Virus record (IMG/VR): IMGVR_UViG_2563366976_000006
Direction: 5' to 3' (one strand)
DNA length: 38,548 bases
DNA from: a virus
Lineage: Duplodnaviria > Heunggongvirae > Uroviricota > Caudoviricetes
Under the pieces are notes generated by a model that was not told the DNA's origin, made no database searches, and saw only the letters and a list, made by a program, of their open reading frames with translations. How positions within the stretch are numbered: position 1 is the first letter of the stretch; the number at the start of each line of letters is the position of its first letter. Below, piece after piece: positions 4,296 through 30,244 of this stretch. Both the position numbers and the translations under genes were made by a program.

Positions 4296-4592
4296 ATGCT
4301 GACGAAAGAACCATCATTTGCATCGCTGCTGGTAAAACAAAGCCCGGCAATGCACTACGGTCACGGCTGGATCACGGGTGAGGATGGAAAACGCTGGCAT
4401 CCATGTCATTCACAAGATGAATTGCTGTCTGAATTGACCACGAGGAAACGGAGAAAGTCCAAATGTATGCGGCAGAAAGTGAAGTGGTTTATCAATTTCG
4501 TTACAGAGGGGAGAGTTATTCAGTACCTGAAGATGATTTGCTCTGTTGCTATCCGTCATTGTCGGGCGATGGCAGTTACTTTTTCACGTTAA
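4296..4592 (+). CDS. small early protein, Fil-like (start uncertain)
   Basis: ATG at 4296 with GAGG SD; occupies the fil position of 186; overlaps next ORF in another frame. Confidence 0.4.
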   Translation: MLTKEPSFASLLVKQSPAMHYGHGWITGEDGKRWHPCHSQDELLSELTTRKRRKSKCMRQKVKWFINFVTEGRVIQYLKMICSVAIRHCRAMAVTFSR

Positions 4593-4687
4593 AGGATGGG
4601 ACGTTTTTACGGGGAGAGCAGGTTAAAGAGACGATACGAAAAAATGTATCTCCTCTTGAGCGTTACCGTAAGAACAAAGAACGATAG
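4463..4687 (+). CDS. small early hypothetical protein (dhr position)
   Basis: 74-aa ORF with GGAG SD 9 nt upstream of ATG; overlaps 3' part of previous ORF. Confidence 0.35.
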   Translation: MYAAESEVVYQFRYRGESYSVPEDDLLCCYPSLSGDGSYFFTLKDGTFLRGEQVKETIRKNVSPLERYRKNKER

Positions 4688-4709
4688 CTGCGTTTGGGGG
4701 ATATGAAGT

Positions 4710-5051
4710 ATGGCAATTAATGGCGCTGCAGCAACTGTTCCATTAAGCCCCGGTGAACGCCTGAATGGACTTAATCACATTGCGGAGTTAAGGGCGAAAG
4801 TTTTTGGCCTGAATATTGAGTCAGAGCTTGAGCGGTTTATTAAAGATATGCGTGATCCACGGGATATCAATAATGAACAAAATAAACGGGCACTGGCTGC
4901 CATATTCTTTATGGCAAAAATTCCAGCTGAACGTCATAGCATCAGCATTAATGAGCTGACCACTGACGAAAAGCGGGAGCTGATTAAAGCAATGAATCAT
5001 TTTCGTGCAGTGGTGAGCTTATTTCCCAGACGGCTAACCATGCCGAATTAA
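4710..5051 (+). CDS. hypothetical early phage protein
   Basis: 113-aa ORF in the early operon, same strand. Confidence 0.5.
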   Translation: MAINGAAATVPLSPGERLNGLNHIAELRAKVFGLNIESELERFIKDMRDPRDINNEQNKRALAAIFFMAKIPAERHSISINELTTDEKRELIKAMNHFRAVVSLFPRRLTMPN

Positions 5052-5112
5052 CCAACTAATGAAATTAATGGCGTAAACCCGCCGGGCATCCCTTTATCTA
5101 AATTCAGGAGAA

Positions 5113-5352
5113 TTGATTATGCGTAATATTGAAACCCTCACGACTAAAACCGGACCGGATGACGCAGGGCTTAATATTTTACTGACAGAGGCTCGTCTGG
5201 AAGAACGCCGGGCAAGGGCTGAAGCAATGGCTGCTCGCCTTGATAGCCTGGCGTGTCATATCTCATCCCGCCAGCTAAACCACGTGGAAGCGGCAGAACT
5301 GCTGCGCGTGACTGCTGAAGCAATCCAGAACGAAGCGCAGGAGATCCACTAA
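5113..5352 (+). CDS. hypothetical early phage protein
   Basis: 79-aa ORF, AGGAG SD upstream, tightly packed with next gene. Confidence 0.5.
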   Translation: MIMRNIETLTTKTGPDDAGLNILLTEARLEERRARAEAMAARLDSLACHISSRQLNHVEAAELLRVTAEAIQNEAQEIH

Positions 5353-5579
5353 TGGCTGATGCAATGGATCTCGTACAGCAGCGCGTTGAAGAAGAACGCC
5401 AGCGCCATATCCGTGCAGCCCGTGCCAAATCACCGGGCGTGTCACGCGTACTTTGCATTGAATGTGAAGCGCCAATTCCGCCAGCACGACGCCGCGCCAT
5501 TCCGGGAGTGCAGCTTTGCATTACCTGTCAGGAAATCGCAGAACTGAAAGGCAAACATTACAACGGAGGTGCTGTATGA
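5352..5579 (+). CDS. TraR/DksA-family zinc-finger protein
   Basis: 75-aa ORF with CxxC...CxxC spacing (CIECEAP...CITCQ). Confidence 0.6.
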   Translation: MADAMDLVQQRVEEERQRHIRAARAKSPGVSRVLCIECEAPIPPARRRAIPGVQLCITCQEIAELKGKHYNGGAV

Positions 5580-6433
5580 GCACCATCCTGAAATGGGCGG
5601 GAAATAAAACCGCCATTATGCCAGAACTGAAAAAATACCTTCCTGCTGGCCCGCGACTGGTTGAACCTTTCGCGGGTTCCTGTGCTGTGATGATGGAAAC
5701 GGATTATCCCAGCTATCTGGTTGCGGATATTAATCCTGATTTAATCAACCTCTATAAAAAGGTTGCCGCTGATTGTGAATCGTTTATATCTCGCGCCAGA
5801 GTTTTATTTGAGATCGCAAACAGGGAGGTGGCTTATTACAACATAAGGCAGGAGTTTAACTGCTCAACTGAAATTACTGATTTCATGAAAGCGGTATATT
5901 TCCTGTATCTCAATCGTCACGGTTACCGTGGTTTATGTCGCTATAACAAGAGCGGGCATTTCAACATTCCCTACGGTAATTATAAAAATCCGTATTTCCC
6001 TGAAAAAGAACTTCGCACATTTGCAGAAAAAGCCCAGCGAGCAACGTTTATCTGCGCCAGCTTTGATGAAACGCTGGCGATGTTGAAGGCGGGAGATGTG
6101 GTGTATTGCGATCCGCCATATGACGGTACGTTTTCCGGCTATCACACTGATGGTTTCACTGAAGATGACCAGTATCACCTGGCATCCGTTCTTGAACATC
6201 GGTCATCAGAAGGACATCCGGTCATTGTTTCTAACAGTGACACATCCCTGATCCGTTCGCTGTATCGCAATTTTACTCACCACTATATCAAGGTAAAACG
6301 CAGCATCGGTGTGGCAGCTGGCGAGGGTAAATCAGCAACAGAAATCATTGCTGTTTCCGGGCCGCGCTGCTGGATGGGATTTGATTATTCGCGTGGCGTG
6401 GATAGTTCTGCCGTGTACGGAGTACGTGCATGA
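5576..6433 (+). CDS. dam: DNA adenine methyltransferase (Dam-like, N6-adenine)
   Basis: Starts [11 protein letters not shown]; FAGS motif and DPPY catalytic motif ([10 protein letters not shown]). Confidence 0.85.
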
Positions 6434-8844
6434 GTCATGCCGATATGAACAACTGCTGCGGCTTTAACGAGGCTGCCGCAGCATTCTCATGGAACAGCCC
6501 GAAAAAGGCCATTAACCCTTATCTGGACCCGGCGGAAGTTGCGCCGGTTTCTACGCTTTCAAACCTGATCACTCTGTACGCTGCCGATAACGAGCAGGAA
6601 CAGTTGCGCCGCGAGGCACTGAGTGATCAGGTCTGGGAGCGTTATTTCTTTAATGAATCACATGATCCTGTCCAGCGCGAAATGGAGCAGGATAAGCTCA
6701 TTAGCCGGGCAAAGCTGGCGCATGAGCAGCAGCGTTTTAATTCAGACATGGTCATTCTGGCGGACGTCAACGCCCAGCCTTCCCATATCAGCAAGCCGCT
6801 GATGCAACGTATTGAATACTTCAGCAGCCTGGGCAGGCCAAAGGCTTATTCCCGCTATTTACGTGAGACGATTAAGCCATGTCTGGAACGACTGGAGCAT
6901 GTACGCGACAGTCAGCTATCTGCATCTTTTCGCTTTATGGCAAGCCATGAAGGGCTGGACGGCCTGCTGATCCTGCCTGAAATGAGTCAGGATCAGGTGA
7001 AACGCCTGTCCACCCTGGTAGCTGCGCATATGAGTATGTGCCTTGATGCAGCTTGTGGTGATTTGTATGCCACCGATGACGTTAAGCCAGAAGAAATCCG
7101 CAAGACATGGGAAAAGGTGGCAGCGGAAACCCTGCGTCTGGATGTCATCCCACCTGCGTTTGAGCAACTCCGTCGGAAAAGAAACCGCCGTAAACCCGTG
7201 CCGTATGAACTCATTCCGGGTTCGCTGGCGCGTATGTTGTGCGCCGACTGGTGGTATCGGAAATTATGGAAGATGCGTTGCGAATGGCGGGAAGAGCAGT
7301 TGCGCGCTGTTTGCCTGGTCAGCAAAAAAGCATCTCCTTATGTCAGCTATGAAGCCGTGATGCATAAACGTGAGCAGCGCCGTAAGTCGCTGGAGTTTTT
7401 CCGTTCTCATGAACTGGTGAACGAAGACGGTGACACGCTGGACATGGAGGATGTGGTAAACGCCAGCAGCAGCAACCCTGCGCATCGCCGCAATGAGATG
7501 ATGGCCTGTGTTAAAGGTCTGGAGCTTATCGCGGAAATGCGCGGTGACTGCGCCGTTTTCTACACTATCACCTGTCCGTCGCGTTTCCATTCCACGCTAA
7601 ATAACGGCAGACCAAACCCGACCTGGACAAACGCGACGGTAAGACAAAGCAGCGATTATCTGGTCGGCATGTTTGCTGCATTTCGTAAGGCGATGCACAA
7701 AGCCGGGTTGCGCTGGTATGGCGTGCGGGTGGCTGAGCCGCATCATGATGGCACAGTTCACTGGCACCTGTTGTGTTTCATGCGCAAAAAAGACCGCCGT
7801 GCCATCACTGCATTACTGCGTAAGTTTGCCATCCGTGAAGACCGCGAGGAGCTGGGCAATAACACTGGGCCGCGCTTTAAGTCTGAGTTGATTAACCCGC
7901 GCAAAGGAACGCCGACAAGCTACATCGCGAAATATATCAGTAAGAACATTGACGGTCGTGGTCTGGCTGGCGAGATCAGCAAGGAAACGGGTAAATCTCT
8001 GCGTGATAACGCTGAATACGTGAATGCCTGGGCGTCTCTGCATCGTGTTCAGCAATTCCGCTTCTTTGGTATTCCGGGGCGTCAGGCTTACCGTGAACTT
8101 CGCTTGCTGGCTGGTCAGGCGGCAAGGCAACAGGGTGACAAAAAAGCAGGTGCGCCGGTACTGGATAACCCGCGTCTTGATGCCATTCTGGCTGCTGCTG
8201 ATGCTGGTTGTTTTGCCACCTACATCATGAAGCAGGGCGGCGTACTGGTTCCCCGTAAATATCACCTCATCAGAACCGCTTATGAAATCAACGAAGAGCC
8301 GACCGCCTATGGCGATCACGGCATTCGTATTTATGGCATCTGGTCACCCATTGCAGAGGGCAAGATCTGCACTCATGCAGTGAAGTGGAAAATGGTTCGT
8401 AAAGCCGTTGACGTTCAGGAGGCGGCAGCCGACCAGGGCGCTTGCGCCCCTTGGACTCGTGGCAATAACTGTCCCCTTGCTGAAAATTTGAACCAACAGG
8501 AGAAAGATAAATCAGCTGATGGGGACACCAGAACGGACATTACCCGCATGGATGACAAGGAGTTGCACGATTACCTGCACAGTATGAGCAAAAAAGATCG
8601 CCGGGAGCTGGCAGTAAGGTTGCGCCTGGTTAAACCGAAAAGGTGTAAAGACTACAAACAGCGAATTACAGATCATCAGCATCAGCAGCTCGTCTATGAA
8701 CTGAAGTCCAGAGGATTTGATGGCAGCGAGAAAGAAGTCGATTTGCTCCTTCGCGGTGGCAGTATTCCATCAGGAGCAGGCCTGCGTATCTTCTATCGGA
8801 ACCAGCGTCTGAAGGAAGATGATAAATGGCGGAACCTGTATTAA
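6430..8844 (+). CDS. A: replication initiation endonuclease (P2 gpA family)
   Basis: 804-aa ORF; HxH-type motif region (HWHLL) typical of rolling-circle initiators; position after the early genes. Confidence 0.85.
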
Positions 8845-9860: not shown

Positions 9861-10844
9861 ATGCTCGCTGCAATTGTTGCAGCGAGCATATCTGAGATGG
9901 ATATTATGCAGCTTGAAAAAAAATTATGTGAAAAATTCAACCTTACCCCTTTGAAGCTTTCTATCCTCTCATCCAAAGCTCCAAAAAAATATCGCGTATA
10001 TTATATACCCAAGAGAACTTCTGGTCTTAGGGCGATTGCTCAGCCGACTAAAGAGTTGAAGCAAATTCAACGTTTTTTGGTTTCGGAGTTGAAGCCTCTT
10101 TTGCCAATTCATTCATCAGCAATGGCTTACAGATGTGGCATAAGCATTAAGGATAATGCTGAACGTCACAAGAACAATCCATTTATATTAAAAATGGATT
10201 TTCAGAATTTTTTTAATAAAATTAAACCGGAAATTTTTTTTGATAAGTTCAAAAAAATGGATGTTCAACACAACGCCAGAGATGAAATACTTCTGCACAA
10301 TTTTTTGTTTTGGAAGCCAGGGCAAAAAAGAAGTATTACACATATATTGAGCGTAGGAGCACCGAGTTCTCCATTCATTAGTAATTTTGTCATGTTTGAT
10401 TTTGATTCAGCTATCAGTGAGTGGTGTGCTGATTTTGGTATTGTTTATACTCGTTATGCGGATGATATAACATTTTCAACCGCTAGAAAAAATATTTTAT
10501 TCAGTGTTCCTAAAATAGTTAAAAACATGCTTGCTGAGCACGCATCAGGTATTACCATTAATGAAGCCAAGACCATTTTTACATCTAAGGCTCACAATAG
10601 GCATGTTACAGGTGTAACTATTACTACTGATGGTGAATTATCTATAGGGCGAAAGAGAAAAAAATATCTTTTCTCTCTTGTTTTTAAATATAGCAATGGG
10701 AACTTGACAAGTGAAGAAATTTTATATGCTAAAGGACTGATGTCTTATTGCATGCATATTGAAAGAAATATAATAATAAGAATGAAAAATAAGTATGGTG
10801 CGGAAGTTATCAATAAATTTCTTAAGGAAGGTTGTGATGAATGA
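9861..10844 (+). CDS. retron-type reverse transcriptase
   Basis: 327-aa ORF; RVYYIPKRTSGLRAIAQPTKELK motif and YADD catalytic box; start may be 9861, 9897 or 9906. Confidence 0.85.
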   Translation: MLAAIVAASISEMDIMQLEKKLCEKFNLTPLKLSILSSKAPKKYRVYYIPKRTSGLRAIAQPTKELKQIQRFLVSELKPLLPIHSSAMAYRCGISIKDNAERHKNNPFILKMDFQNFFNKIKPEIFFDKFKKMDVQHNARDEILLHNFLFWKPGQKRSITHILSVGAPSSPFISNFVMFDFDSAISEWCADFGIVYTRYADDITFSTARKNILFSVPKIVKNMLAEHASGITINEAKTIFTSKAHNRHVTGVTITTDGELSIGRKRKKYLFSLVFKYSNGNLTSEEILYAKGLMSYCMHIERNIIIRMKNKYGAEVINKFLKEGCDE

Positions 10845-12450
10845 TTCTAAAAAAAGAGTGGATAATGTTTTTTCGGAGTTTATTGGTCTGATTAATGATG
10901 GCGTGCCTGAGGATAAATTAAAATATTCACCTGTATTGAATTTGCTAAATGAATCTTTAAATAAAGACAACTTATACCTTAAGAAAATATCAATTGTAGA
11001 CTTCAAAAGATTAAGGGATGTTATTGTAAATCTTGAAGATGATCTCACAGTTTTTGTTGCTGACAACGGCTATGGTAAAACAACTTTGCTTGATGCGATC
11101 GCAATTTCTTTAAGTTGGCTTCGTTCTAATATACAGAAAAAAGATAAACCTGGGTCGTATATAAGGGAAGTGGATATAAATAACTCAAAAGATGCCTTGT
11201 ATGCATCTATTGCTGCAACATTTAAAGTACAAGAGCTGAATACTAATGTTTTAATCACAAATGCAAAAGATGGTGTGTCTTTTAAACGCAGTAACGATTT
11301 ACAAGAAATTAAGCTGCTAGCAACAATGTACCGCTATGTTAATACGTTCTTAGATAATTCAAGTCTACCTGTGATGGCTTATTATTCAATTGTTAGGTCT
11401 GTCGTTGGTGGTGGTATTGATAATAGAAGAAGAAGCGGTAAGAATAAAGTTTCTTGGTCCAAATTTGATGTGTATGACGATTTCATGTTTGATAGAAATG
11501 ATTTTGGCGAATTTTTAAATTGGCTCATGTTTTTATCGAATAAATCCGCTCATGAGAATCCAGTGGTCACTGATAACCCAGAGTTACTCAGAAAGGAAAT
11601 AGAAAGTATCAATAACACAATTGAACAACTAAGTATTGTTTCTAACATCGATTTTAGTATTATTAATCAGCTAAAGAGTAGTCTTGAAGAGAAAAAAAAC
11701 CAATTAAATAAGTTTAGTAGTGAAGGGTTTTTAAGTTCATCTGTCTTATATAGGAATGTAATAAATGCTATATTGAGATTTTTGCCTGAATTCGAAAGCA
11801 TTAATCTGGTTTATAGTGAGACTGATGTTAAGCTTGTTCTTATCAAGAATGGTATTCAATTAGATGCGCAACAACTCTCACAAGGTGAGAAAACCATACT
11901 TACTCTGGTAGGTGATTTAGCTCGCCGACTTTCCCTTTTGAATCCAGAGCTACAAAATCCATTTGAAGGTCAAGGCATAGTATTAATTGATGAGGTTGAT
12001 TTGCACCTTCATCCAACTTGGCAGCAGAAAATTATAGAGCGGCTATTAACAACCTTTCCTAATGTTCAGTTTGTTCTTTCTACACACAGCCCTCAAGTCA
12101 TATCTACTGTTCCTGCCAGGAGCATAAGGATTTTAGAGGAGGTGGAAGATGAATTTGGTGATATTTCGATAAAAGCTGTTAGGCCCCGCTTTCAAACTAA
12201 AGGGGTGATGAATAGTGATGCATTACTTTATGGAATGGGAGCAGACCCTGCGCCTCCTGTAGAAGAAGTAAAATGGTTGGAAGAGTACAAAAAATTTATT
12301 GAATTGGATCAGTTTGATAGCGATTCAGCGCTTAAACTACGCCAGAATATAATAAGTCACTTTGGGGAAGATCATCCTTTAGTTGTAGAACTCGATCAGA
12401 TGACTTCACTCATGGAGTTTAAAAGAAAAATTAGAAATAAAAAACAATGA
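10837..12450 (+). CDS. retron effector ATPase (PtuA-like, ABC/AAA-type)
   Basis: Walker A DNGYGKTT, Walker B LIDEVDLHLH; start overlaps RT stop by 8 nt. Confidence 0.8.
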   Translation: MNDSKKRVDNVFSEFIGLINDGVPEDKLKYSPVLNLLNESLNKDNLYLKKISIVDFKRLRDVIVNLEDDLTVFVADNGYGKTTLLDAIAISLSWLRSNIQKKDKPGSYIREVDINNSKDALYASIAATFKVQELNTNVLITNAKDGVSFKRSNDLQEIKLLATMYRYVNTFLDNSSLPVMAYYSIVRSVVGGGIDNRRRSGKNKVSWSKFDVYDDFMFDRNDFGEFLNWLMFLSNKSAHENPVVTDNPELLRKEIESINNTIEQLSIVSNIDFSIINQLKSSLEEKKNQLNKFSSEGFLSSSVLYRNVINAILRFLPEFESINLVYSETDVKLVLIKNGIQLDAQQLSQGEKTILTLVGDLARRLSLLNPELQNPFEGQGIVLIDEVDLHLHPTWQQKIIERLLTTFPNVQFVLSTHSPQVISTVPARSIRILEEVEDEFGDISIKAVRPRFQTKGVMNSDALLYGMGADPAPPVEEVKWLEEYKKFIELDQFDSDSALKLRQNIISHFGEDHPLVVELDQMTSLMEFKRKIRNKKQ

Positions 12451-12462
12451 GGAGACTTGAGG

Positions 12463-13131
12463 ATGAAATTTCTTCGAAGGATATATCCTGGCCCTAACGT
12501 GCTAAGTAGTTATGATTTTAATACTCAAACTTGGGATGATGTATCATCATCTGACAAAAAAGATATTTGGGTAGATTTAGTTAAAATGCAAGGCAAAGTA
12601 TGCGCTTATTGTGAAAGGAAAATAAACCTAACAAAAGAGGGGGATAAGCATATTGAGCATTTCAAGCGAAAAGGTATTCATCGCGAATTAACGTTTAACT
12701 GGGAGAATCTGTTTGGTTCGTGTGGGGAAAAACAAAGATGCGGATTCTACAAAGACAAACAAGAATATAATGAGGGTGACCTGTTAAAAGCTGATGAAAT
12801 GGATCCTGAAGATTTTTTTGTTTTTATCTATAGTGGTGATGTTATTGTAAAACCTGAGATAAATGAACGAAATAAAGTAATAGCTGAGGTTACCCTGAGG
12901 GTATTCAATCTTAATCCCGAGAACGGTGGTGTTAAAGCCGAGAGAAGAAATGTCCTCGAGAAAGGCTTAGGCACTATAAAGGGGTATGTTAAGATTGCTC
13001 AAGACTTAATTGATAGTGGTGAGGATGCAGAAGAAGTTCGGCAATATGTTCGGGATGAGTATTATGAAAAAATTTCACAAATGGATTTTAAAACTGCAAG
13101 GAAACATGTTTTTGAAGCATTTCTACCTTGA
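12463..13131 (+). CDS. retron effector HNH endonuclease (PtuB-like)
   Basis: CAYCERK...HIEHF...C-x-x-C pattern; GGAG SD; 12 nt after ATPase stop. Confidence 0.75.
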   Translation: MKFLRRIYPGPNVLSSYDFNTQTWDDVSSSDKKDIWVDLVKMQGKVCAYCERKINLTKEGDKHIEHFKRKGIHRELTFNWENLFGSCGEKQRCGFYKDKQEYNEGDLLKADEMDPEDFFVFIYSGDVIVKPEINERNKVIAEVTLRVFNLNPENGGVKAERRNVLEKGLGTIKGYVKIAQDLIDSGEDAEEVRQYVRDEYYEKISQMDFKTARKHVFEAFLP

Positions 13132-21528: not shown

Positions 21529-22224
21529 TCATGTCAAATATTGATAACTTTTATCAATTTCAAGTTTGTGAAATTTGGTTATCTTTGAATCAATGTATAA
21601 ATCTATGAACATTGCTATCCCTATCATAAATATAAATAGAATGCTTAAATAAATAATGGGGGTGGCAATCATAATTGTAAATTTGTTCTTGTCTGTCGTT
21701 TTTGCTAACTCTTCTTTCTTTTCAGGAATTAGCAAGTAGCTACAAATGAAATCTTTTGTGGCTTGTTGGATTGAAGTGATCTTATCAAGCTGTGACTTGT
21801 CAACACATACATCTGGTGTGATATTCCATTCAGGTGTGTATGGTATGTTTTGTGCGTGTTCTGGTTTCATCCAAAAGGAATCTTTTGTTTCTCTATGTGT
21901 GATTTCAACCCAATTTACGGGTTCTTTGGCGATGAAATAGGTAAATTTATAAAAACAAAGTGCTGAGGTCATAATGACTGCAATTCCAAATGAGACGATA
22001 AATATTTTATGTTTTTTAATATGGGGTTTTGTGCTTAACTTATATTTGCAAAGACTAAGTCTAATAATTGGCTTTGATATTCCAATCTTTGATATCAAAA
22101 AGTCTTCTTCTGGATAGGATGTGTTTAACCATGACCAAAAAGCCGAGATGCCACCTATAAGCCATTTAAATATAAGACCACCAATGGCCGTAGCTAAAAA
22201 TGTATTTATTTTATCGATTTCCAT
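21529..22224 (-). CDS. AT-rich moron: predicted 3-TM membrane protein of unknown function, antisense to late operon
   Basis: 231-aa ORF on opposite strand between S and V; strongly AT-rich DNA; hydrophobic helices at N-terminus, middle and C-terminus. Confidence 0.6.
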   Translation of the reverse strand: MEIDKINTFLATAIGGLIFKWLIGGISAFWSWLNTSYPEEDFLISKIGISKPIIRLSLCKYKLSTKPHIKKHKIFIVSFGIAVIMTSALCFYKFTYFIAKEPVNWVEITHRETKDSFWMKPEHAQNIPYTPEWNITPDVCVDKSQLDKITSIQQATKDFICSYLLIPEKKEELAKTTDKNKFTIMIATPIIYLSILFIFMIGIAMFIDLYIDSKITKFHKLEIDKSYQYLT

Positions 22225-22324: not shown

Positions 22325-22902
22325 ATGAACGCACAATTAACCGAAATCATGCGCCTTATCACCAACCTGATCCGCACTGGTGTAGTCACCGAAGTGGACC
22401 GGGAAAACTGGCTTTGCCGGGTGAAAACGGGCGACCTTGAAACCAACTGGATTAACTGGCTGACGCTGCGCGCGGGTAATGCCGCACATGGTGGAAACCA
22501 TCGGAAGGTGAGCAGGTGGTGCTGCTGAGTCTGGGAGGCAATCTGGAAACCGCCTTTGCGTTGCCCGCTGTCTATTCGAATCAGTTCGCGCCACCTTCGA
22601 CGTCGGCGGACGCCTGCGTGACAGAACATCCTGACGGTGGCTGGTTTGAATACGAACCCGCCACCGGGCGCTGGTATGTCAGGGGCATCAAATCCATGGT
22701 CATTGAGGCTGCCGACAACATCACCCTGAAAACCAGTGAGTTTGTGCTGGAGGCTGACCGCACGCGTATTAACAGCGAAGTAGTGATCAATGGTGGTGTT
22801 ACCCAGGGCGGCGGTGCAATGAGTTCTAACGGAATTGTGGTTGATGCACATCAGCATACTGGCGTCCTGAAAGGCGGCGACACAACCGGAGGCCCGGTAT
22901 GA
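22325..22902 (+). pseudogene. V: baseplate spike gene (P2 gpV family) interrupted by a frameshift near 22480-22490
   Basis: N-terminal 52 codons in one frame (22325 onward) and the rest in another (ending 22902); the two ORFs together cover a normal-length V. Confidence 0.65.
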
Positions 22903-23258: not shown

Positions 23259-24153
23259 CCTTTCGCAGTTGCCTGCACCGCAGATTGTGGATGTGCCGGA
23301 CTTTGAGACGCTGCTTGCCGAACGCAAGGCAGAATTTGTGGCGCTTCATCCGAAAGATGAGCAGGAAGCCGTGATCCGCACGCTGGAACTGGAATCTGAA
23401 CCCGTCACTAAATTGTTGCAGGAGAACGCTTACCGTGAGTTGCTTCTGCGCCAGCGCATTAACGAAGCCGCGCAGGCGGTGATGGTGGCTTACGCGATGG
23501 GCGGCGATCTTGACCAGCTCGCTGCCAACTACAACGTGACACGCCTGACGGTGACGCCTGCTGATAATGATGCTGTGCCGCCCGTTGCAGCTGTGATGGA
23601 AAGCGATGAAGCGTTACGCCTGCGTGTGCCTGCAGCCTTTGAAGGGCTTTCTGTTGCGGGGCCAACTGCAGCTTATGAATTTCATGCCCGAAGCGCCGAC
23701 GGTCGGGTGGCGGATGCCAGTGCAACCAGCCCGGCACCTGCAGAGGTGGTGCTGACTGTCCTTAGCCGCGAAGGCGATGGAACTGCAGAAAAAGACCTGC
23801 TGGACGTGGTGGAAAAAGCTCTGAACAGTGAGAACGTCCGCCCGGTGGCTGACCGTCTGACGGTTCGCAGCGCAGAAATCATCCCGTATCGCGTGGAAGC
23901 CACCATTTTTCTCTATCCGGGACCGGAAGCAGAGCCGGTAATGGCAGCGGCAAAAGCCAGCCTGCAGAAGTACATCGCCAGTCAGACGCGTCTTGGTCGG
24001 GATATTCGCCGTAGCGCCATCTTTGCCGCCCTGCATGTTGAGGGTGTGCAGCGTGTGGAGCTGGCTTCTCCTCTGGCGGATGTGGTCCTGAACAAAACAC
24101 AGGCGGCATCATGTACGCAGTGGAGCGTAACCAACGGAGGAACGGATGAATAG
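23245..24153 (+). CDS. J: baseplate protein (P2 gpJ family)
   Basis: ATG 23245 with AGGAG SD; ~302 aa. Confidence 0.85.
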   Translation: MAVIDLSQLPAPQIVDVPDFETLLAERKAEFVALHPKDEQEAVIRTLELESEPVTKLLQENAYRELLLRQRINEAAQAVMVAYAMGGDLDQLAANYNVTRLTVTPADNDAVPPVAAVMESDEALRLRVPAAFEGLSVAGPTAAYEFHARSADGRVADASATSPAPAEVVLTVLSREGDGTAEKDLLDVVEKALNSENVRPVADRLTVRSAEIIPYRVEATIFLYPGPEAEPVMAAAKASLQKYIASQTRLGRDIRRSAIFAALHVEGVQRVELASPLADVVLNKTQAASCTQWSVTNGGTDE

Positions 24154-24751
24154 TCTGCTGCCACCGGGTTCAACTTCACTGGAGCGCCGACTGGCGCAAA
24201 CCTGTAGCGGGATTTCTGATCTGCAGGTGCCGCTGCGTGACTTGTGGAGTCCGGCTACCTGTCCGGTCAGCTTCCTGCCTTATCTCGCCTGGGCGTTCTC
24301 TGTGGATCGCTGGGACGAGGGCTGGACAGAAAGCGTCAAACGCCAGGTAGTGAAGGATGCTTTTTATATTCATCAGCATAAAGGAACCACCAGTGCCGTG
24401 CGGCGGGTGGTGGAACCGTTCGGATTCCTGATCCGCATTATTGAGTGGTGGCAGACCGGAGAAACACCGGGCACGTTTCGCCTGGATATCGGCGTGCAGG
24501 ACCAGGGCATCACTGAAGATACCTATCTGGAACTTGAGCGGCTGATAAGCGATGCCAAACCATGTAGCCGTCACATGATCGGCATGTCCATCAATCTGCA
24601 GACCAGCGGTCCGCATTGGGTGGGGGCCGCCAGCTATCTTGGCGAAGAAATCACGATCTATCCGTATATCAACGAAACAATTATTTCTGGCGGCACCGCG
24701 CATGAAGGCGGGGCGGTCCATGTTATTGACACAATGAGAGTGAATCCATGA
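24146..24751 (+). CDS. I: baseplate/tail protein (P2 gpI family)
   Basis: 201-aa ORF overlapping J end and H start. Confidence 0.85.
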   Translation: MNSLLPPGSTSLERRLAQTCSGISDLQVPLRDLWSPATCPVSFLPYLAWAFSVDRWDEGWTESVKRQVVKDAFYIHQHKGTTSAVRRVVEPFGFLIRIIEWWQTGETPGTFRLDIGVQDQGITEDTYLELERLISDAKPCSRHMIGMSINLQTSGPHWVGAASYLGEEITIYPYINETIISGGTAHEGGAVHVIDTMRVNP

Positions 24752-26295
24752 GCACAAAATTTTATACCCTGCTGACGGATATTGGCGCGGCGAAACTTGC
24801 CAGCGCCGCCGCGCTCGGTGTGCCGCTAAAAATTACCCATATGGCGGTCGGCGATGGCGGCGGAGTATTGCCAACGCCAGACTCAAAGCAGACTGCACTG
24901 GTAAATGAGAAACGCCGGGCTGCGCTGAATATGCTCTATATCGACCCGCAGAACAGCAGCCAGATTATTGCCGAACAGGTGATCCCTGAAAACGAGGGCG
25001 GTTGGTGGATACGTGAAGTGGGCTTGTTTGATGAGTCCGGGGCATTGATTGCCGTGGGCAACTGCCCGGAAAGCTATAAGCCGCAACTGGCTGAAGGTAG
25101 CGGGCGCACTCAGACCGTGCGCATGGTGCTGATTACCAGCAGCACGGACAATATCACCCTGAAAATCGACCCTGCCGTAGTGCTGGCAACCCGCAAGTAT
25201 GTGGATGACAAGGCACTGGAGCTGAAGGTGTACGCGGATGATCAGATGGCAAAACATCTTGCCGCACCGGACCCGCATTCACAGTATGCACCCAAAGAAA
25301 GTCCGACGTTTACCGGGACACCCAAAGCGCCAACGCCAGCCGCAGGGAATAACACCACGCAGGTTGCGACCACTGCGTTTGTACAGGCGGCACTGACGGC
25401 CCTTATTAATGGTGCGCCAGCCACGCTGGACACGCTGAAAGAAATAGCCGCAGCCATTAACAATGATCCGAATTTCAGTACCACCATTAACAATGCGCTG
25501 GCACTAAAAGCACCGTTGTCGAGTCCGGCACTCACCGGAACGCCAACAGCCCCCACGGCGGCGCAGTCGGTCAACAATACACAGATTGCCACTACGGCTT
25601 TTGTGAAATCGGCGATTGCGGCAATGGTGGGTTCTGCACCTGCGGCACTGGATACACTGAACGAACTGGCGGCGGCGCTGGGGAATGATCCGAACTTTGC
25701 CACGACAATGCTTAATGCGCTGGCAGGTAAACAACCGCTGGACAATACGCTGACTAATTTGAGTGGAAAGGATGTAGCTGGTCTTCTCGCATACCTTGGT
25801 TTGGGAGAAGGCTCAGCGTTACCCGTTGGTGTGCCTGTTCCGTGGCCTTCAGCCACACCACCAACAGGCTGGCTGAAATGCAACGGTGCACCTTTTTCTG
25901 CCGAAGAGTACCCAAAACTGGCAAAGGCTTACCCAAAGTTAAAATTACCGGATTTGCGCGGTGAGTTTATTCGCGGGTGGGATGATGGGCGAGGTGTTGA
26001 TTCCGCGAGACTGCTGCTTTCAAGTCAGGCAGCATCTATCCTTGAACATAACCATGAAATGCATGGATGGACAGGGAACCCACTCATGGCTAGAGATGTT
26101 GGTGAATTAGGTACATCATACGTATTTGCGGTGCAGTTGAGCATTGGCGATGGCGGGTTATTGTATTCGTGGAAGGATGGGAGTGGAACAACAAATGACA
26201 GTAAACGAATGGATAGAACAAATCATGTCAGTTCCGGCGCCGGTGATGGTAGCCCGCGAAACATTGCATTTAACTACATTGTGAGGGCTGCATAA
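24748..26295 (+). CDS. H: tail fibre protein (P2 gpH family) with switchable C-terminal domain
   Basis: 515-aa ORF; internal ~72-aa tandem repeats; C-terminal region lies inside the invertible segment. Confidence 0.85.
   Translation: MSTKFYTLLTDIGAAKLASAAALGVPLKITHMAVGDGGGVLPTPDSKQTALVNEKRRAALNMLYIDPQNSSQIIAEQVIPENEGGWWIREVGLFDESGALIAVGNCPESYKPQLAEGSGRTQTVRMVLITSSTDNITLKIDPAVVLATRKYVDDKALELKVYADDQMAKHLAAPDPHSQYAPKESPTFTGTPKAPTPAAGNNTTQVATTAFVQAALTALINGAPATLDTLKEIAAAINNDPNFSTTINNALALKAPLSSPALTGTPTAPTAAQSVNNTQIATTAFVKSAIAAMVGSAPAALDTLNELAAALGNDPNFATTMLNALAGKQPLDNTLTNLSGKDVAGLLAYLGLGEGSALPVGVPVPWPSATPPTGWLKCNGAPFSAEEYPKLAKAYPKLKLPDLRGEFIRGWDDGRGVDSARLLLSSQAASILEHNHEMHGWTGNPLMARDVGELGTSYVFAVQLSIGDGGLLYSWKDGSGTTNDSKRMDRTNHVSSGAGDGSPRNIAFNYIVRAA
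25784..25809. repeat. inversion crossover site (left), 26-bp Gin/Hin-type imperfect palindrome
   Basis: ttctcgcatacc tt ggtttgggagaa; inverted copy at 27757-27782; shared 15-mer TTGGTTTGGGAGAAG. Confidence 0.55.
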
Positions 26296-26898
26296 ATGGA
26301 ACAGGCTATTTTGGGAAAAGACGGTTACGCTTTAAATGATGGGGAAATCATCGTACATAACTATGATGGCGAAACGCGGGAATATATTTCTACATCAACT
26401 GAATATCTCGCTGTCGGCGTCGGTATCCCGGCATGTTCCTGTCTGGATGCGCCAGGTGCACATAAGGCTGGTTATGCAATTTGCCGTTCTGTAGAATTAA
26501 ATTCATGGGAATATGTGCCAGATCATCGCGGCGAAACTGTTTATAGCACGGAAAATGGCCGGAAAGTAACCATTTCAGATATTGGCGAATATCCCGAAAA
26601 TACAACCACTATCGCCCCATTAACGCCATATGATAAATGGGATGGTGAGAAATGGGTGACCGATACTGAGGCACAGCATAGCGCCGCAGTAGACGCGGCA
26701 GAAGCACAGCGTCAGTCACTGATTGATGCTGCAATGGCTTCCATCAGTCTGATTCAGCTGAAATTACAGGCCGGACGGAAGTTGATGCAGGCAGAAACAA
26801 CCCGGCTTAACGCTGTGCTGGATTACATTGACGCGGTGACGGCAACAAATACCAGCACAGCGCCGGATGTCATCTGGCCTGAACTGCCGGAGGCGTAG
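26296..26898 (+). CDS. G: tail fibre assembly protein (P2 gpG family), active orientation
   Basis: 200-aa ORF directly after H. Confidence 0.8.
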   Translation: MEQAILGKDGYALNDGEIIVHNYDGETREYISTSTEYLAVGVGIPACSCLDAPGAHKAGYAICRSVELNSWEYVPDHRGETVYSTENGRKVTISDIGEYPENTTTIAPLTPYDKWDGEKWVTDTEAQHSAAVDAAEAQRQSLIDAAMASISLIQLKLQAGRKLMQAETTRLNAVLDYIDAVTATNTSTAPDVIWPELPEA

Positions 26899-27313
26899 GC
26901 CATTCAATATCTGGCGCACCGGAAATATCGACCAGTTCCAGTGCGTCCAGATAATCCAGCCACGAATTATATTGCGCCAGTTCCTCGCCTTTCAGACGAC
27001 CAATAGCAGCTTTGCCAGGCCACTGATGGGTATTGATGTAGGTATTGACTTCTGAAACCAAAGATATTTTTTTCATTTCAGCCGTCAACACCTCATCCTC
27101 TTTTGAAGGGGGGGGGGAATTAATCCATACTGGCCGTCCTGAACTATCAGCGCCAATTTCTTTCCCTTCTGGATGCAGACCAAGAAATTGCTCATATGTT
27201 TCTCTGGTAATTTCAATAACATCATCAGGAAGCGTTCCCGCATCCTCATATTCTGGAAACAATTCTTGCAGATAAAAACTTTTACTTCCGGGTGAAAAGA
27301 ATACTGAGTTCAT
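26870..27313 (-). CDS. alternative tail fibre assembly protein (silent orientation)
   Basis: 147-aa ORF convergent with G, C-terminus similar to G C-terminus (DYLDA...WPE/WPTPP). Confidence 0.7.
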   Translation of the reverse strand: MNSVFFSPGSKSFYLQELFPEYEDAGTLPDDVIEITRETYEQFLGLHPEGKEIGADSSGRPVWINSPPPSKEDEVLTAEMKKISLVSEVNTYINTHQWPGKAAIGRLKGEELAQYNSWLDYLDALELVDISGAPDIEWPTPPAVQAR

Positions 27314-27315
27314 TA

Positions 27316-27810
27316 TTACCGTCCAATGATTAACGCTGAGACGCTGGTATCTGAAGGAAAGGCTGCATTCAGTGGTTTGTCGACTTTGAACACAATCGTA
27401 TTATTCCCCCTGACAGCGGCAAAAGAACAAACCGCAGTCGCGTATGAACCTGTAATATTACTGGATACACCACCATAAGCTGTTGTTGATACCAGAGGGA
27501 TAACGCCCAGTACCTTATTAGGAAATACAAAGGGCAATGTGGCTGTGGCAATATAAGACTTATTAGAACCTGTGATGGCATAAGCATTATCAGTCATTCC
27601 ATTCATCGCCACTGGGCCGCTTATACTTACAGTAACCATCTGTATGATTAGCCCGTCAGGTTGACGAATCACAAAATTTCCATTGCCACCAGTAACCGTC
27701 CAGAAAGACATATCAGGGATTTGGTTTTCCCCGTTGCCCACATTCCGTTTTGCCGCTTCTCCCAAACCAACGTTTAAGAAAATGCAGCGATTACGGCTAA
27801 CTGGCATCAT
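27316..27810 (-). CDS. alternative tail fibre C-terminal cassette (silent orientation; fused to H after inversion)
   Basis: Shares the GLGE junction codons with H at the crossover site; no independent promoter or SD expected. Confidence 0.6.
   Translation of the reverse strand: MMPVSRNRCIFLNVGLGEAAKRNVGNGENQIPDMSFWTVTGGNGNFVIRQPDGLIIQMVTVSISGPVAMNGMTDNAYAITGSNKSYIATATLPFVFPNKVLGVIPLVSTTAYGGVSSNITGSYATAVCSFAAVRGNNTIVFKVDKPLNAAFPSDTSVSALIIGR
27757..27782. repeat. inversion crossover site (right)
   Basis: ttctcccaaacc aa cgtttaagaaaa, inverted relative to 25784-25809. Confidence 0.5.
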
Positions 27811-27831
27811 CCCCTATTTTTATTCAGGGAG

Positions 27832-28404
27832 ATGATCATGCTTATTGGCTATGTACGCGTGTCAACAAATGACCAGAACACCGATTTGCAACGTAATGCG
27901 CTGAACTGCGCGGGATGTGAGCGGATTTTTGAGGACAAAATCAGTGGCACTAAGTCCGACAGACCGGGGCTTAAAAAACTGCTCAGGACACTATTGGCAG
28001 GAGACACGCTGGTTGTCTGGAAGCTGGACAGGTTGGGGCGCAGTATGCGGCATCTTGTTACGCTGATAGAAGAGTTGCGCCAGCGTGGTGTGAATTTCCG
28101 AAGCCTGACTGACAGTATTGATACCAGTACCCCAATGGGCCGTTTCTTTTTTCATGTCATGGGTGCCCTGGCTGAAATGGAACGCGAACTGATAGTTGAA
28201 CGTACCCGGGCAGGGCTGGCTGCAGCTCGTGCTAAAGGCAGAGTAGGTGGACGCCGTCCTAAGTTGACCACTGAACAGTGGGCACAGATTGGACGTTTAC
28301 TCGAGGCCGGAGAATCAAGACAGCGTATTGCACTGATTTTTGATGTAGGCGTTTCTACCATTTATAGAAAATTTCCGGCAAATAAGAGCAATGAATCCCC
28401 CTGA
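27832..28404 (+). CDS. serine DNA invertase (Gin/Pin/Hin/Cin family)
   Basis: MLIGYVRVSTNDQNTDLQ N-terminus with catalytic serine; C-terminal HTH; adjacent to inverted repeats. Confidence 0.9.
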   Translation: MIMLIGYVRVSTNDQNTDLQRNALNCAGCERIFEDKISGTKSDRPGLKKLLRTLLAGDTLVVWKLDRLGRSMRHLVTLIEELRQRGVNFRSLTDSIDTSTPMGRFFFHVMGALAEMERELIVERTRAGLAAARAKGRVGGRRPKLTTEQWAQIGRLLEAGESRQRIALIFDVGVSTIYRKFPANKSNESP

Positions 28405-28452
28405 ATCAGCATAATTTTGATTATCCCTGCAAGCAGACAAATACCGTCATTT

Positions 28453-28470
28453 TGTGTGAATAACGGTACA
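28453..28470. promoter_or_regulatory. late-promoter activator site TGT-N12-ACA upstream of FI
   Basis: tgtgtgaataacggtaca about 80 bp upstream of FI; resembles the site upstream of O. Confidence 0.5.
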
Positions 28471-28546
28471 ACTGCGCTTAGCTGTTTGTCAGGCACAATC
28501 ACTTCAACATAGGGCGAAGCCTAATCCAATCAGGAGGTTCGCCACT

Positions 28547-29719
28547 ATGGCTCAGGATTACCACCACGGGGTGCGCGTTGTTGAAGTCAACGAAGGCACC
28601 CGATCCATTACCACGGTGAGCACCGCCATCGTGGGTATGGTCTGCACGGGCGATGATGCCGATGCAAAAATGTTTCCTCTTAATAAACCCGTGCTGATCA
28701 CTGATGTGCTGACTGCCAGCGGTAAAGCGGGTGAGTCCGGCACGCTGGCCCGTTCGCTGGATGCCATCGCTGACCAGGCAAAACCCGTGACCGTTGTTGT
28801 GCGTGTGCCGCAGGGTGAAACGGAAGAAGAAACCACGACCAATATCATCGGCGCAGTGACTGCTGAAGGTAAAAAAACAGGCATGAAAGCTCTGTTATCT
28901 GCTCAGTCACAGCTCGGCGTTAAACCGCGCATTCTGGGTGTACCAGGTCACGACACCAAGGCGGTAGCTACTGAGTTGCTGAGTGTGGCGCAAAGCCTGC
29001 GTGGGTTTGCTTACCTGTCAGCGTATGGCTGCAAGACTGTGCAGGAGGCAATCACTTACCGTGAAAACTTCAGCCAGCGCGAAGGGATGCTGATCTGGCC
29101 CGACTTTACTGGCTGGGACACGGTGCTGAATGCCGAAGCAACGGCATATGCCACCGCCCGTGCGCTTGGTCTGCGTGCCAAAATTGATGAGCAGACCGGG
29201 TGGCACAAAAGCCTGTCCAACGTGGGCGTGAACGGTGTCACCGGAATTTCTGCTGATGTGTTCTGGGATCTGCAGGACCCGGCAACCGATGCGGGACTGC
29301 TTAACCAGAACGACGTCACCACGCTTGTGCGCAAGGATGGTTTCCGCTTCTGGGGTTCCCGCTGTCTGAGCGATGATCCGCTTTTTGCCTTCGAAAACTA
29401 CACCCGCACAGCGCAGGTACTGATGGACACAATGGCAGAAGCACATATGTGGGCGGTGGACAAACCGCTGAACCCGTCGCTGGCCCGCGACATTATCGAA
29501 GGTATCCGCGCCAAAATGCGCAACCTGGTCAGTCAGGGCTATCTCATTGGTGGTGATTGCTGGCTGGATGAGTCGGTGAACGACAAAGACACGCTTAAAG
29601 CCGGAAAACTCACCATCGACTACGACTACACGCCAGTGCCGCCACTTGAAAATCTGATGCTGCGCCAGCGCATCACCGATCAGTACCTGGTGAATTTCGC
29701 CAGCCAGGTCAGCGCGTAA
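28547..29719 (+). CDS. FI: tail sheath protein (P2 gpFI family)
   Basis: 390-aa ORF, AGGAGG SD. Confidence 0.9.
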
Positions 29720-29728
29720 GGGGACAAC

Positions 29729-30244
29729 ATGGCTTTACCACGCAAATTAAAACATCTGAACCTGTTTAACGACGGGAACAACTGGCAGGGAATCGTTGAG
29801 TCGCTGACGCTGCCGAAATTCACTCGCAAATATGAGAAGTATCGCGGCGGCGGTATGCCGGGGGCGGTGGATGTGGATCTGGGACTGGATGACAGTGCAC
29901 TGGATACAGAATTTTCCATTGGTGGTACTGAACTGCTGCTGTTTAAGCAGATGGGCAAAGCCACGGTGGATGGCATCCAGCTGCGCTTTACCGGCTCTAT
30001 CCAGCGTGACGATACCGGGGAAGTGCAGCCCGTGGAGCTTGTGGTGCGTGGACGTCACAAAGAAGTGGATTCCGGTGAGTGGAAGACGGGCGAAAGCAAC
30101 ACCACCAAAGTGACCAGTACCAACAGCTACGCGAAGCTGACCATCAATGGTGAGGTGCTCTATGAAGTGGACCTTATCAACATGGTGGAAATTGTGGACG
30201 GTGTGGACCTGATGGAGGCGCACCGCAACGCCCTCGGCCTCTGA
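29729..30244 (+). CDS. FII: tail tube protein (P2 gpFII family)
   Basis: 171-aa ORF after sheath. Confidence 0.9.
   Translation: MALPRKLKHLNLFNDGNNWQGIVESLTLPKFTRKYEKYRGGGMPGAVDVDLGLDDSALDTEFSIGGTELLLFKQMGKATVDGIQLRFTGSIQRDDTGEVQPVELVVRGRHKEVDSGEWKTGESNTTKVTSTNSYAKLTINGEVLYEVDLINMVEIVDGVDLMEAHRNALGL

Follow-up and report, generated by a model that had tools for sequence, protein, structure and literature searches.

The H-G/FI interval of a P2-like (Peduoviridae) Escherichia coli prophage, integrated beside ybjL, very probably carries a functional site-specific inversion switch of the Pin type (Din family: Gin/Cin/Hin/Pin), which exchanges the tips of the tail fibre. The prophage was analysed in a 38,548-nt stretch of DNA (IMG/VR record IMGVR_UViG_2563366976_000006; hereafter, the window). 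Two matched crossover sites flank the segment, the fibre reading frame continues through both fusions, the invertase gene is intact, and near-identical prophages hold the segment in both orientations. The features of the locus are as follows.

24748–25795, + strand: Hc, constant part of tail-fibre gene H, ~349 codons (PF12571, Phage_tail_fib N-terminal domain, E 9e-65)
25784–25809, + strand: left crossover site, a pixL/gix-like 26-mer, TTCTCGCATACC-TT-GGTTTGGGAGAA, inside tail-fibre gene H
25796–27770, no strand: invertible segment, 1975 bp from core dinucleotide to core dinucleotide
25798–26295, + strand: Sv, variable H C-terminus of the window orientation, 165 aa (PF07484, Collar, E 2e-14)
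26296–26898, + strand: tfa, predicted tail-fibre assembly chaperone for Sv, 200 aa (PF02413, Caudo_TAP, E 3e-29)
26870–27313, − strand: tfa′, alternative assembly chaperone, 147 aa (PF02413, E 2e-27)
27316–27768, − strand: Sv′, alternative variable C-terminus, 150 aa from GLGE (PHROG 12714, E 7e-48)
27757–27782, + strand: right crossover site, a pixR-like 26-mer, TTCTCCCAAACC-AA-CGTTTAAGAAAA, upstream of the invertase
27838–28404, + strand: Pin/Gin-family serine DNA invertase, 188 aa (PF00239 and PF02796; Gin PDB 3uj3)
27859–27922, no strand: putative Fis-dependent recombinational enhancer in the 5′ end of the invertase gene

Gene organization of the invertible segment

Hc lies outside the invertible segment and has the same sequence in both orientations. 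It contributes transcription and the translation start, together with the N-terminal domain for baseplate attachment. Because transcription and the initial ~349 H codons come from outside the segment, each orientation places an alternative tip on the same shaft. Sv, which forms the end of H in the window, was also matched to the tip structure of T4 gp37 (2xgf, E 1.9e-15), and consists of a tail collar and a gp37-tip-like predicted receptor-binding region with an HxH motif. Sv′ is a 5′-truncated, promoterless cassette, and the ORF called at 27316–27810 simply reads on through the right site. Comparison of Sv′ with PF21882 (Gp53-like_C) gave 24.1 bits, slightly below the family cutoff, and a sequence search against solved structures gave no match at E ≤ 0.1; its homologues in a large protein database were nearly all at least 98% identical. 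The two tips, collar/gp37-tip-like in Sv and gp53-like in Sv′, are unrelated in sequence. Each is located directly 5′ of its own PF02413 chaperone gene, an arrangement that serves to recognize invertible tail-fibre segments of the Mu G, P1 C, e14 P and p15B Min type. The two chaperone genes are convergent and overlap by 29 nt, and tfa′ is silent in the window orientation.

Both fibre ends open with GLGE, at the crossover. When the segment was flipped in silico, an in-frame 500-aa H′ was obtained with tfa′ located 2 nt downstream, and the two fusion forms are found in RefSeq annotation as a 515-aa protein in strain 23CRST038 and a 500-aa tail protein in strain N10. The locus therefore has a constant 5′ fibre part outside the segment and two opposed variable 3′ parts inside it, both of which fuse in frame. 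The original prediction had placed the C-terminus of H and an assembly gene, together with an inverted alternative pair, between the sites, and had held that GLGE is shared by both C-termini at the crossover and that inversion would create an in-frame alternative fibre. The gene content and the shared residues were verified, and the alternative fusion was confirmed by the simulated flip and by the same fusion annotated in N10.

Crossover sites

The pair 25784–25810/27756–27782 was the top inverted repeat within 24000–30000 (27 nt, 81% complementary), and it contains two imperfectly palindromic 26-bp sites in inverted orientation. The left site codes for ..LAYLGLGE.. in the H frame. A perfect 15-bp core, TTGGTTTGGGAGAAG, is common to both sites, and the central dinucleotides, TT at the left and AA at the right on the + strand, match when the sites are read as inverted copies, in agreement with the identical 2-bp cores of the Din family. 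A gix/hix-type pattern allowing up to 3 mismatches had two matches in the 38.5-kb window, which are the two sites, and none in 100 dinucleotide-preserving shuffles of the window. The repeat and pattern searches thus recovered the 15-bp perfect inverted repeats and 26-bp sites that had been claimed to lie in H and upstream of the invertase. A multi-inversion system of the Min or shufflon kind was considered and ruled out, because the window has just two sites at ≤3 mismatches.

Invertase and putative enhancer

The invertase contains complete PF00239 (Resolvase, residues 5–137, E 1.2e-52) and PF02796 (HTH_7, residues 140–183, E 1.4e-15) domains, and it matched the Gin structure (PDB 3uj3) at E 1.6e-92 and gamma-delta resolvase at E 2.5e-34. 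It shared 86.2% identity with PinE over 181 aa and about 75–78% identity with Mu Gin (74.6% over 185 aa by BLASTP); its initial description as Gin/Pin-type was accurate, with Pin the closer of the two. The stretches YVRVSTNDQ, DRPGL and LDRLGRS are identical to Gin in the alignment, the catalytic Ser9 and the conserved Arg and Asp residues are present, and the reading frame is uninterrupted by any frameshift or stop. The gene most likely starts at 27838 (MLIGYVRVS) rather than at 27832, because MLIGYVRVS matches the starts of Gin and PinE and the RefSeq annotation. No sigma-70 consensus promoter for the invertase was found in 27600–28600. Known invertase genes are weakly expressed.

The residues aligned with Hin K47/R48/K51 read GL-K-K-LL-R, and those aligned with Q151/R154/L155 read EQWA-Q-IG-R-L-LE. 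The equivalents of Hin K47, K/R48, K/R51, Q151, R154 and L155 are conserved specifically in Fis/enhancer-dependent invertases (PMC3798978). The resolvase and HTH_7 architecture, the catalytic residues, the close relation to characterised members and these Fis/enhancer-contact residues are all those of the Din family. Within the putative enhancer, two G-N13-C cores (27859–27873 and 27908–27922) are spaced 49 bp from centre to centre, with ATTTG and TAATG between them; in the hin enhancer, AT-rich ATTTA/TAATG sequences lie between two Fis sites (PMC3798978). Mu gin and e14 pin have both cores at the corresponding positions, and the region is alignable across all three, a conservation that coding constraint could explain; the putative Fis sites scored weakly against a degenerate consensus. 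Din-family systems have a recombinational enhancer with two Fis sites in cis, in the 5′ portion of the invertase gene, and rely on host Fis and DNA supercoiling; inversion here would probably depend on Fis and the enhancer.

Megablast detected a single matching place in 23CRST038 and a single one in N10, indicating that neither genome has a close pin paralogue to act in trans, whereas distant PinQ/PinR-like invertases may act on the segment in trans. We infer that catalysis is carried out by this particular invertase and not by one in trans.

Both orientations in near-identical prophages

The same prophage occupies the same chromosomal site in E. coli N10 and 23CRST038, with the segment in opposite orientations. 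Over 43,151 bp, the two copies differ by 2 SNPs and in the 1975-bp segment, which is in one the exact reverse complement of the other, and the breakpoints fall inside the 15-bp cores. The sequence flipped in silico matched N10 in one piece, with 100% identity over 3151 nt. Across complete E. coli genomes, the segment lies as in the window in 28 and is flipped in 18. Opposite orientations also occur in another two genomes that have identical 15-kb flanks, so that inversion between the sites is seen in two genome pairs; in this second pair, 16 odd mismatches were observed inside the segment. The original prediction would have been abandoned had a single orientation been accompanied by an inactivated invertase; instead, both orientations are found in near-identical prophages and the invertase is intact.

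Prophage context and alternative interpretations

Comparison of the RefSeq locus with P2 (NC_001895) showed the P2 gene order: int and CI, then portal, terminase and capsid genes, lysis genes, V-W-J-I-H-G, FI-FII-E-T-U-D and ogr. The baseplate spike gene V is a frameshifted pseudogene with a 1-nt deletion at ~22482, which is the same in both RefSeq copies, and the remaining virion module is intact. Another small prophage ORF carries an internal stop. Because of the V frameshift, virions may not be made from this prophage copy, and the switch may be without host-range effect in this lineage. Since the frameshift is common to both orientations, the inversion is most parsimoniously later than the frameshift.

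The partial degradation of the prophage (the V frameshift and the ORF with the internal stop) and the failure to find a consensus invertase promoter in 27600–28600 would agree with a fossil locus, in which the remnants of an ancestral invertible segment persist in a lineage that has lost flipping. We consider this highly unlikely, because copies that differ by only 2 SNPs over 43 kb hold the segment in opposite orientations, the breakpoints lying in the 15-bp cores, the inversion appears to postdate the frameshift, and the invertase ORF is intact with all its catalytic residues. The same frameshift, in a prophage that still flips, could instead suggest co-option of the switch by the host of a V-defective prophage, in which, by analogy with e14, inversion would select the fibre-derived protein produced in the lysogen, this protein would mask outer-membrane receptors against other phages, and phage host range would no longer be the role of the switch. 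The sites match those of e14, identity is 52% between Sv and StfE and 84.5% between tfa and TfaE, and there is a precedent in the e14 P segment, inversion of which (StfE2; flipped by PinQ/PinE) is reported to block T2 adsorption (PMC12529663). That effect, however, is ascribed to a different chimera, which starts with stfE. Moreover, the fibre gene here belongs to a P2 late operon, and P2 late operons depend on Ogr and are silent in lysogens. As the virion module is otherwise intact and a single recent frameshift is no proof of domestication, such co-option appears very unlikely.

Inverted repeats can also allow homologous inversion, and cultures of mixed orientation can mislead assemblers, so the orientation difference might have arisen by RecA-dependent recombination between the repeats or as an assembly artefact; the 16 odd mismatches in the second genome pair could be read in this sense. 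Perfect identity, however, extends over just 15 bp, which is far under the length needed for efficient RecA recombination, and the repeats have the canonical form of 26-bp invertase sites, in which the central dinucleotides match. In addition, the inversion recurs in many independent assemblies (18 versus 28), and an assembler outputs only orientations that are supported by reads. This origin of the difference is therefore extremely improbable.

Proposed mechanism

For a functional invertase-driven switch, we propose that invertase dimers would bind both 26-bp sites, which would then be synapsed, probably with host Fis bound to the enhancer that the invertase gene itself carries near its 5′ end. 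Cleavage at the central TT/AA, 180-degree subunit rotation and religation would invert 25796–27770, thereby joining the same fibre shaft, at the site-encoded ..YLGLGE junction, to either of two unrelated receptor-binding tips. The window orientation would yield Hc-Sv (515 aa, collar and T4-gp37-tip-like) followed by the TfaE-like chaperone, and the flipped orientation Hc-Sv′ (500 aa, with a gp53-like C-terminus) followed by the TfaP-like chaperone. By analogy with known systems, the two orientations would be expected to differ in host range.

Implications

The switch is of an ordinary, well-known phage type, and invertible tail-fibre loci in P2-like prophages have already been published; the result matters little outside correct annotation. 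The "hypothetical protein" at 27316–27810 is a silent tail-fibre tip cassette, and "recombinase family protein" stands for a Pin-type invertase. Different assemblies may legitimately show the locus in different orientations, which gives apparent structural variants between isogenic genomes. Such switches double the receptor repertoire of P2-like phages and are relevant to host-range prediction. The ..LGLGE junction links the same tip cassette to shafts of the P2, e14 and lambda-stf types, an example of the known modular exchange of fibre tips.

Comparison with known systems

The Mu G segment (S-U/U′-S′/gin) shares the logic of the locus, with a constant N-terminus outside and two tip-chaperone cassettes inside. 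Mu gin is likewise placed directly downstream of the segment on the + strand, the sites are also 26 bp, and the DNA of the enhancer region is alignable. The G segment is ~3 kb in length, compared with 1975 bp here, and the gix half-sites of Mu are different (TTCCTGTAAACC/TTATCCAAAACC); BLASTP gave no match at E ≤ 1e-3 between the fibre or chaperone proteins of the prophage and Mu S, U, S′ or U′.

Among P2-like elements, relatives occupying the same G-FI position were the prophages of EPEC E2348/69, the "Z/fun hotspot" invertases, Escherichia phage 500465-1, the P2-like phage of O157:H43 T22 and Klebsiella phage KP12, in which the cassettes and invertase showed 87–93% DNA identity over 63–70% of the query. 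The type phage P2 (NC_001895) is without an invertase, and fun(Z) occupies its G-FI gap; the Z/fun locus often codes for a DNA invertase plus inverted neighbouring genes (bioRxiv 2024.10.15.618418). Inversion in P2-like prophages has been demonstrated by sequencing and PCR (PMC4272514). The particular pair of tips varies among P2-like elements, and some relatives combine three sites with three alternative tips (PMC4272514), whereas the prophage described here is the simple two-site form.

The e14 P segment of E. coli K-12 (stfP-tfaP/tfaE-stfE/pinE) has near-identical sites with the core TTGGTTTGGGAGAAG(G), 15–16 bp in length (left, CTCTCGAAAACCTTGGTTTGGGAGAA; right, TTCTCCCAAACCAACGTTTATGAAAA), and the repeat reported for e14, TTGGTTTGGGAGAAGG (PMC12529663), is contained in the sites of the prophage. 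The layout, Sv-tfa/tfa′-Sv′/invertase, is also alike, including a 29-nt convergent overlap of tfaP and tfaE. Identity to the e14 proteins was 86% for the invertase (PinE), 84.5% for tfa (TfaE), 54% for tfa′ (TfaP) and 52% for Sv (StfE), whereas BLASTP showed no relation between Sv′ and the StfP tip. At 1975 bp, the segment is longer than that of e14 (1797 bp). Unlike the e14 remnant, which has a constant part of ~97 aa, the element analysed here is a prophage of a P2-like myovirus, its Hc shaft is 349 aa long, and, again unlike e14, it holds the StfE-like cassette in the expressed orientation.

The inverted crossover sites

The longest inverted repeat in the 24000-30000 region paired 25784-25810 with 27756-27782. 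When a degenerate gix/hix-type pattern was searched with up to 3 mismatches allowed, exactly two matches were obtained in the 38.5-kb window, namely the two crossover sites, and none in 100 dinucleotide-preserving shuffles. The sites share a perfect 15-bp stretch, and their central dinucleotides, TT and AA, are the same dinucleotide in inverted orientation. These inverted sites are real, lie at the coordinates below and are not chance occurrences, and both searches agree with the original prediction of 26-bp imperfect palindromes sharing a perfect 15-bp stretch.

Features of the switch locus
24748-26295, +, H, 515-aa tail-fibre gene (ORF map, raw sequence)
25784-25809, left crossover site, 26-mer TTCTCGCATACC-TT-GGTTTGGGAGAA, imperfect palindrome with central TT
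26296-26898, +, tfa, 200-aa gene directly 3' of H (ORF map; Caudo_TAP, E 3e-29)
26870-27313, -, tfa', 147-aa ORF (ORF map; Caudo_TAP, E 2e-27)
27316-27810, -, 164-aa ORF containing the alternative tip Sv' (ORF map; borderline Gp53-like C-terminal match, Pfam)
27757-27782, right crossover site, 26-mer TTCTCCCAAACC-AA-CGTTTAAGAAAA, imperfect palindrome with central AA
27832-28404, +, invertase, 190-aa ORF as called (Pfam Resolvase, E 1e-52, and HTH_7, E 1e-15)

Fibre and chaperone genes

Pfam searches identified a P2-type tail-fibre domain at the N-terminus of H (PF12571, E 9e-65), a tail-collar domain past the crossover (residues 361-408), and two Caudo_TAP tail-fibre assembly proteins, the products of tfa and tfa', flanking the middle of the segment. 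The suggested comparison of the two tips with known receptor-binding domains was successful for one of them: Sv, the tip that is expressed (25798-26295), has relatives in the T4 gp37 receptor-binding tip (2xgf, E 1.9e-15) and in short tail fibres, but a sequence search of solved structures found no relative of Sv'. Sv' falls into PHROG 12714 (E 7e-48), a family without functional annotation, and tail-fibre PHROGs matched it more weakly.

Inversion was simulated by reverse-complementing 25796-27770. In the flipped H, ..LLAYLGLGE runs into AAKRNVGNGENQIP.., yielding a product of 500 aa; two bases separate its end from the ATG of the 147-aa chaperone gene, an arrangement that parallels the TAA-ATG junction between H and tfa as presently oriented. 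The crossover site itself contains the GLGE codons. The ORF map, Pfam matches and simulated flip thus bear out the claims that an inverted alternative C-terminus and assembly gene lie between the repeats and that inversion yields an in-frame alternative fibre through these codons. Since the extra 5' codons of the ORF at 27316-27810 merely run across the site, Sv' is a cassette with neither promoter nor start.

An 18-nt inverted repeat (26817-26834/26943-26960, 83% complementary) in the convergent chaperone genes was rejected as a recombination site; it reflects the conserved C-terminal LDY(I/L)DA motif of tfa and tfa', which overlap by 29 nt. The silent tfa' also contains a G10 homopolymer (27108-27117), which on the coding strand reads C10 and is translated as PPP. 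This run, where slippage or sequencing errors may be frequent, is in frame in the window and in the 23CRST038 and N10 loci; in the related loci of 1504D004 and 1604D011 no G/C run reaches 8 nt.

Both orientations in E. coli genomes

E. coli 23CRST038 was 100% identical to the window orientation, and N10 was 100% identical, in a single piece, to the 3151-nt sequence flipped in silico. Both carry the same P2-like prophage adjoining ybjL. Over the 43,151 bp retrieved around the locus from each, the 1975-bp stretches between the 15-bp cores were exact reverse complements (0 mismatches), with two single-position differences outside the segment (window 18217 and 18831). A single base (18831, G vs T) distinguishes the window itself from 23CRST038, so the window probably stems from a third genome that is very close to these two. 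In the N10 annotation the 500-aa fibre appears as predicted, and the 147-aa chaperone comes directly after it. Strains 1504D004 and 1604D011, with equal genome lengths and identical 15-kb flanks, also have opposite orientations. Both orientations were thus found, rather than a single one with a dead invertase. Across all 5,426 complete E. coli genomes, the window arrangement occurred in 28 and the flipped one in 18 (at least 80% coverage in a single place). Junction-specific 500-nt queries detected fusions of the constant part of H (Hc) to Sv in 371 genomes and to Sv' in 27, the former being more numerous because other partners, too, occur with this Sv type.

Besides the inversion, 16 substitutions separate 1504D004 and 1604D011 (7460-8345 of their loci), all in the half of the segment holding the end of tfa, tfa' and Sv'. 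Gene conversion could account for these, as could cross-talk during polishing, either with a second prophage copy or with a culture of mixed orientation.

Copies of the identical Sv' cassette are widespread and take three forms: silent (163/164 aa), fused at ..NLGLGE to an e14 StfP-type 97-aa N-terminus (247 aa; hundreds of contigs from Escherichia, Shigella and Salmonella), and fused at ..YLGLGE to a lambda-stf-type shaft (PF03406); in P0027 and P0109, which are homologous to window 27316-27768, the tip is at least 99% identical. Because Sv' is joined to several shaft types at LGLGE, the junction encoded by the site acts as a universal point at which fibre tips are spliced on in different phage types.

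The invertase and its control

The invertase aligned over its full length with Mu Gin (PDB 3uj3, E 1.6e-92) and much more poorly with gamma-delta resolvase (E 2.5e-34). It shared 86% identity with e14 PinE and 75% with Gin (BLASTP), and its catalytic serine motif, YVRVSTNDQ, is identical to that of Gin, confirming a Gin/Pin-type enzyme. Both the Gin alignment and RefSeq place its start at 27838 (MLIGYVRVS).

Hin K47, K/R48 and K/R51 (helix B) and Q151, R154 and L155 (DNA-binding domain) are kept specifically in Fis/enhancer-dependent invertases (PMC3798978); at the aligned positions the window invertase has K-K-x-x-R and Q-x-x-R-L. The initial ~90 bp of its gene could be aligned with Mu gin and e14 pin, and all three keep two G-N13-C cores (27859-27873 and 27908-27922), whose centres are 49 bp apart. 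Between them sit ATTTG and TAATG, resembling the ATTTA/TAATG minor-groove contacts of the hin enhancer (PMC3798978). Given these residues, cores and likeness, Fis/enhancer dependence is expected; as the Fis-consensus scores of the cores were weak and coding constraint could account for their conservation, it is a dependence that we infer. A promoter scan found no sigma-70 consensus promoter upstream of the invertase. Neither 23CRST038 nor N10 has a close pin paralogue, megablast matching one place per genome. PinQ/PinR-type enzymes have been demonstrated to act in trans on e14 (PMC12529663), and by analogy such distant enzymes may act on the window segment.

The gene V defect and prophage cargo

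A 1-nt deletion (~22482, CCC to CC), called against a 95.7%-identical intact homologue, splits gene V, which encodes the baseplate spike (22325-22902), and RefSeq annotates V as a frameshifted pseudogene in 23CRST038 and N10 alike. This lineage is therefore probably unable to build tails, and the switch, though still flipping, may have no phenotype here. Alternatively, switches in cryptic prophages may serve host defence through receptor masking, a role put forward in PMC12529663. Nothing found here supports this role specifically, and the window fibre gene sits in a P2 late operon. P2 late operons are silent in lysogens.

The P2 old/tin hotspot, located between the portal gene and the region of replication gene A, contains a retron anti-phage system (~9861-13131; L001, the 23CRST038 locus, 4562-7832) made up of a reverse transcriptase of the St85 family, an AAA ATPase and a PtuB HNH nuclease (Ec78 type). 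The third P2 cargo hotspot, between the integrase and the CI repressor, encodes a 558-aa 'SNIPE associated domain-containing protein' (~1136-2812, -; L007 3146-4822), the product of what is probably a further defence gene. A gene for a DUF6216-family membrane-like protein (21529-22224, -) is inserted between V and the virion morphogenesis gene; as a related prophage has a TIR-domain protein at the equivalent position (L003 2148-2948), this site looks like another cargo or moron slot.

Comparison with known switches

In the e14 P segment the sites (CTCTCGAAAACCTTGGTTTGGGAGAA and TTCTCCCAAACCAACGTTTATGAAAA) are nearly the same as in the window; the window sites include TTGGTTTGGGAGAAGG, the repeat that PMC12529663 gives for e14. 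BLASTP identities were 84.5% between TfaE and the tfa product, 52% between StfE and Sv, and 54% between TfaP and the tfa' product, and the e14 chaperone genes overlap convergently by 29 nt, as do tfa and tfa'. The layout of the Mu G segment is equal to that of the window segment. Type phage P2, in contrast, lacks a switch and has fun(Z) in its G-FI gap, a hotspot filled in the window prophage by the alternative cassette and invertase. Phage records carrying the same module are annotated 'DNA invertase'. In EPEC P2-like prophages, inversions, including a three-site variant, were detected and confirmed (PMC4272514), and in a survey of P2-like phages the locus often encoded a DNA invertase with inverted adjacent genes (bioRxiv 10.1101/2024.10.15.618418). 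The original prediction was correct and well described: the window carries a textbook example of a Pin/Gin-type invertible tail-fibre segment, and the presence of such a segment in a P2-like prophage has been documented before.
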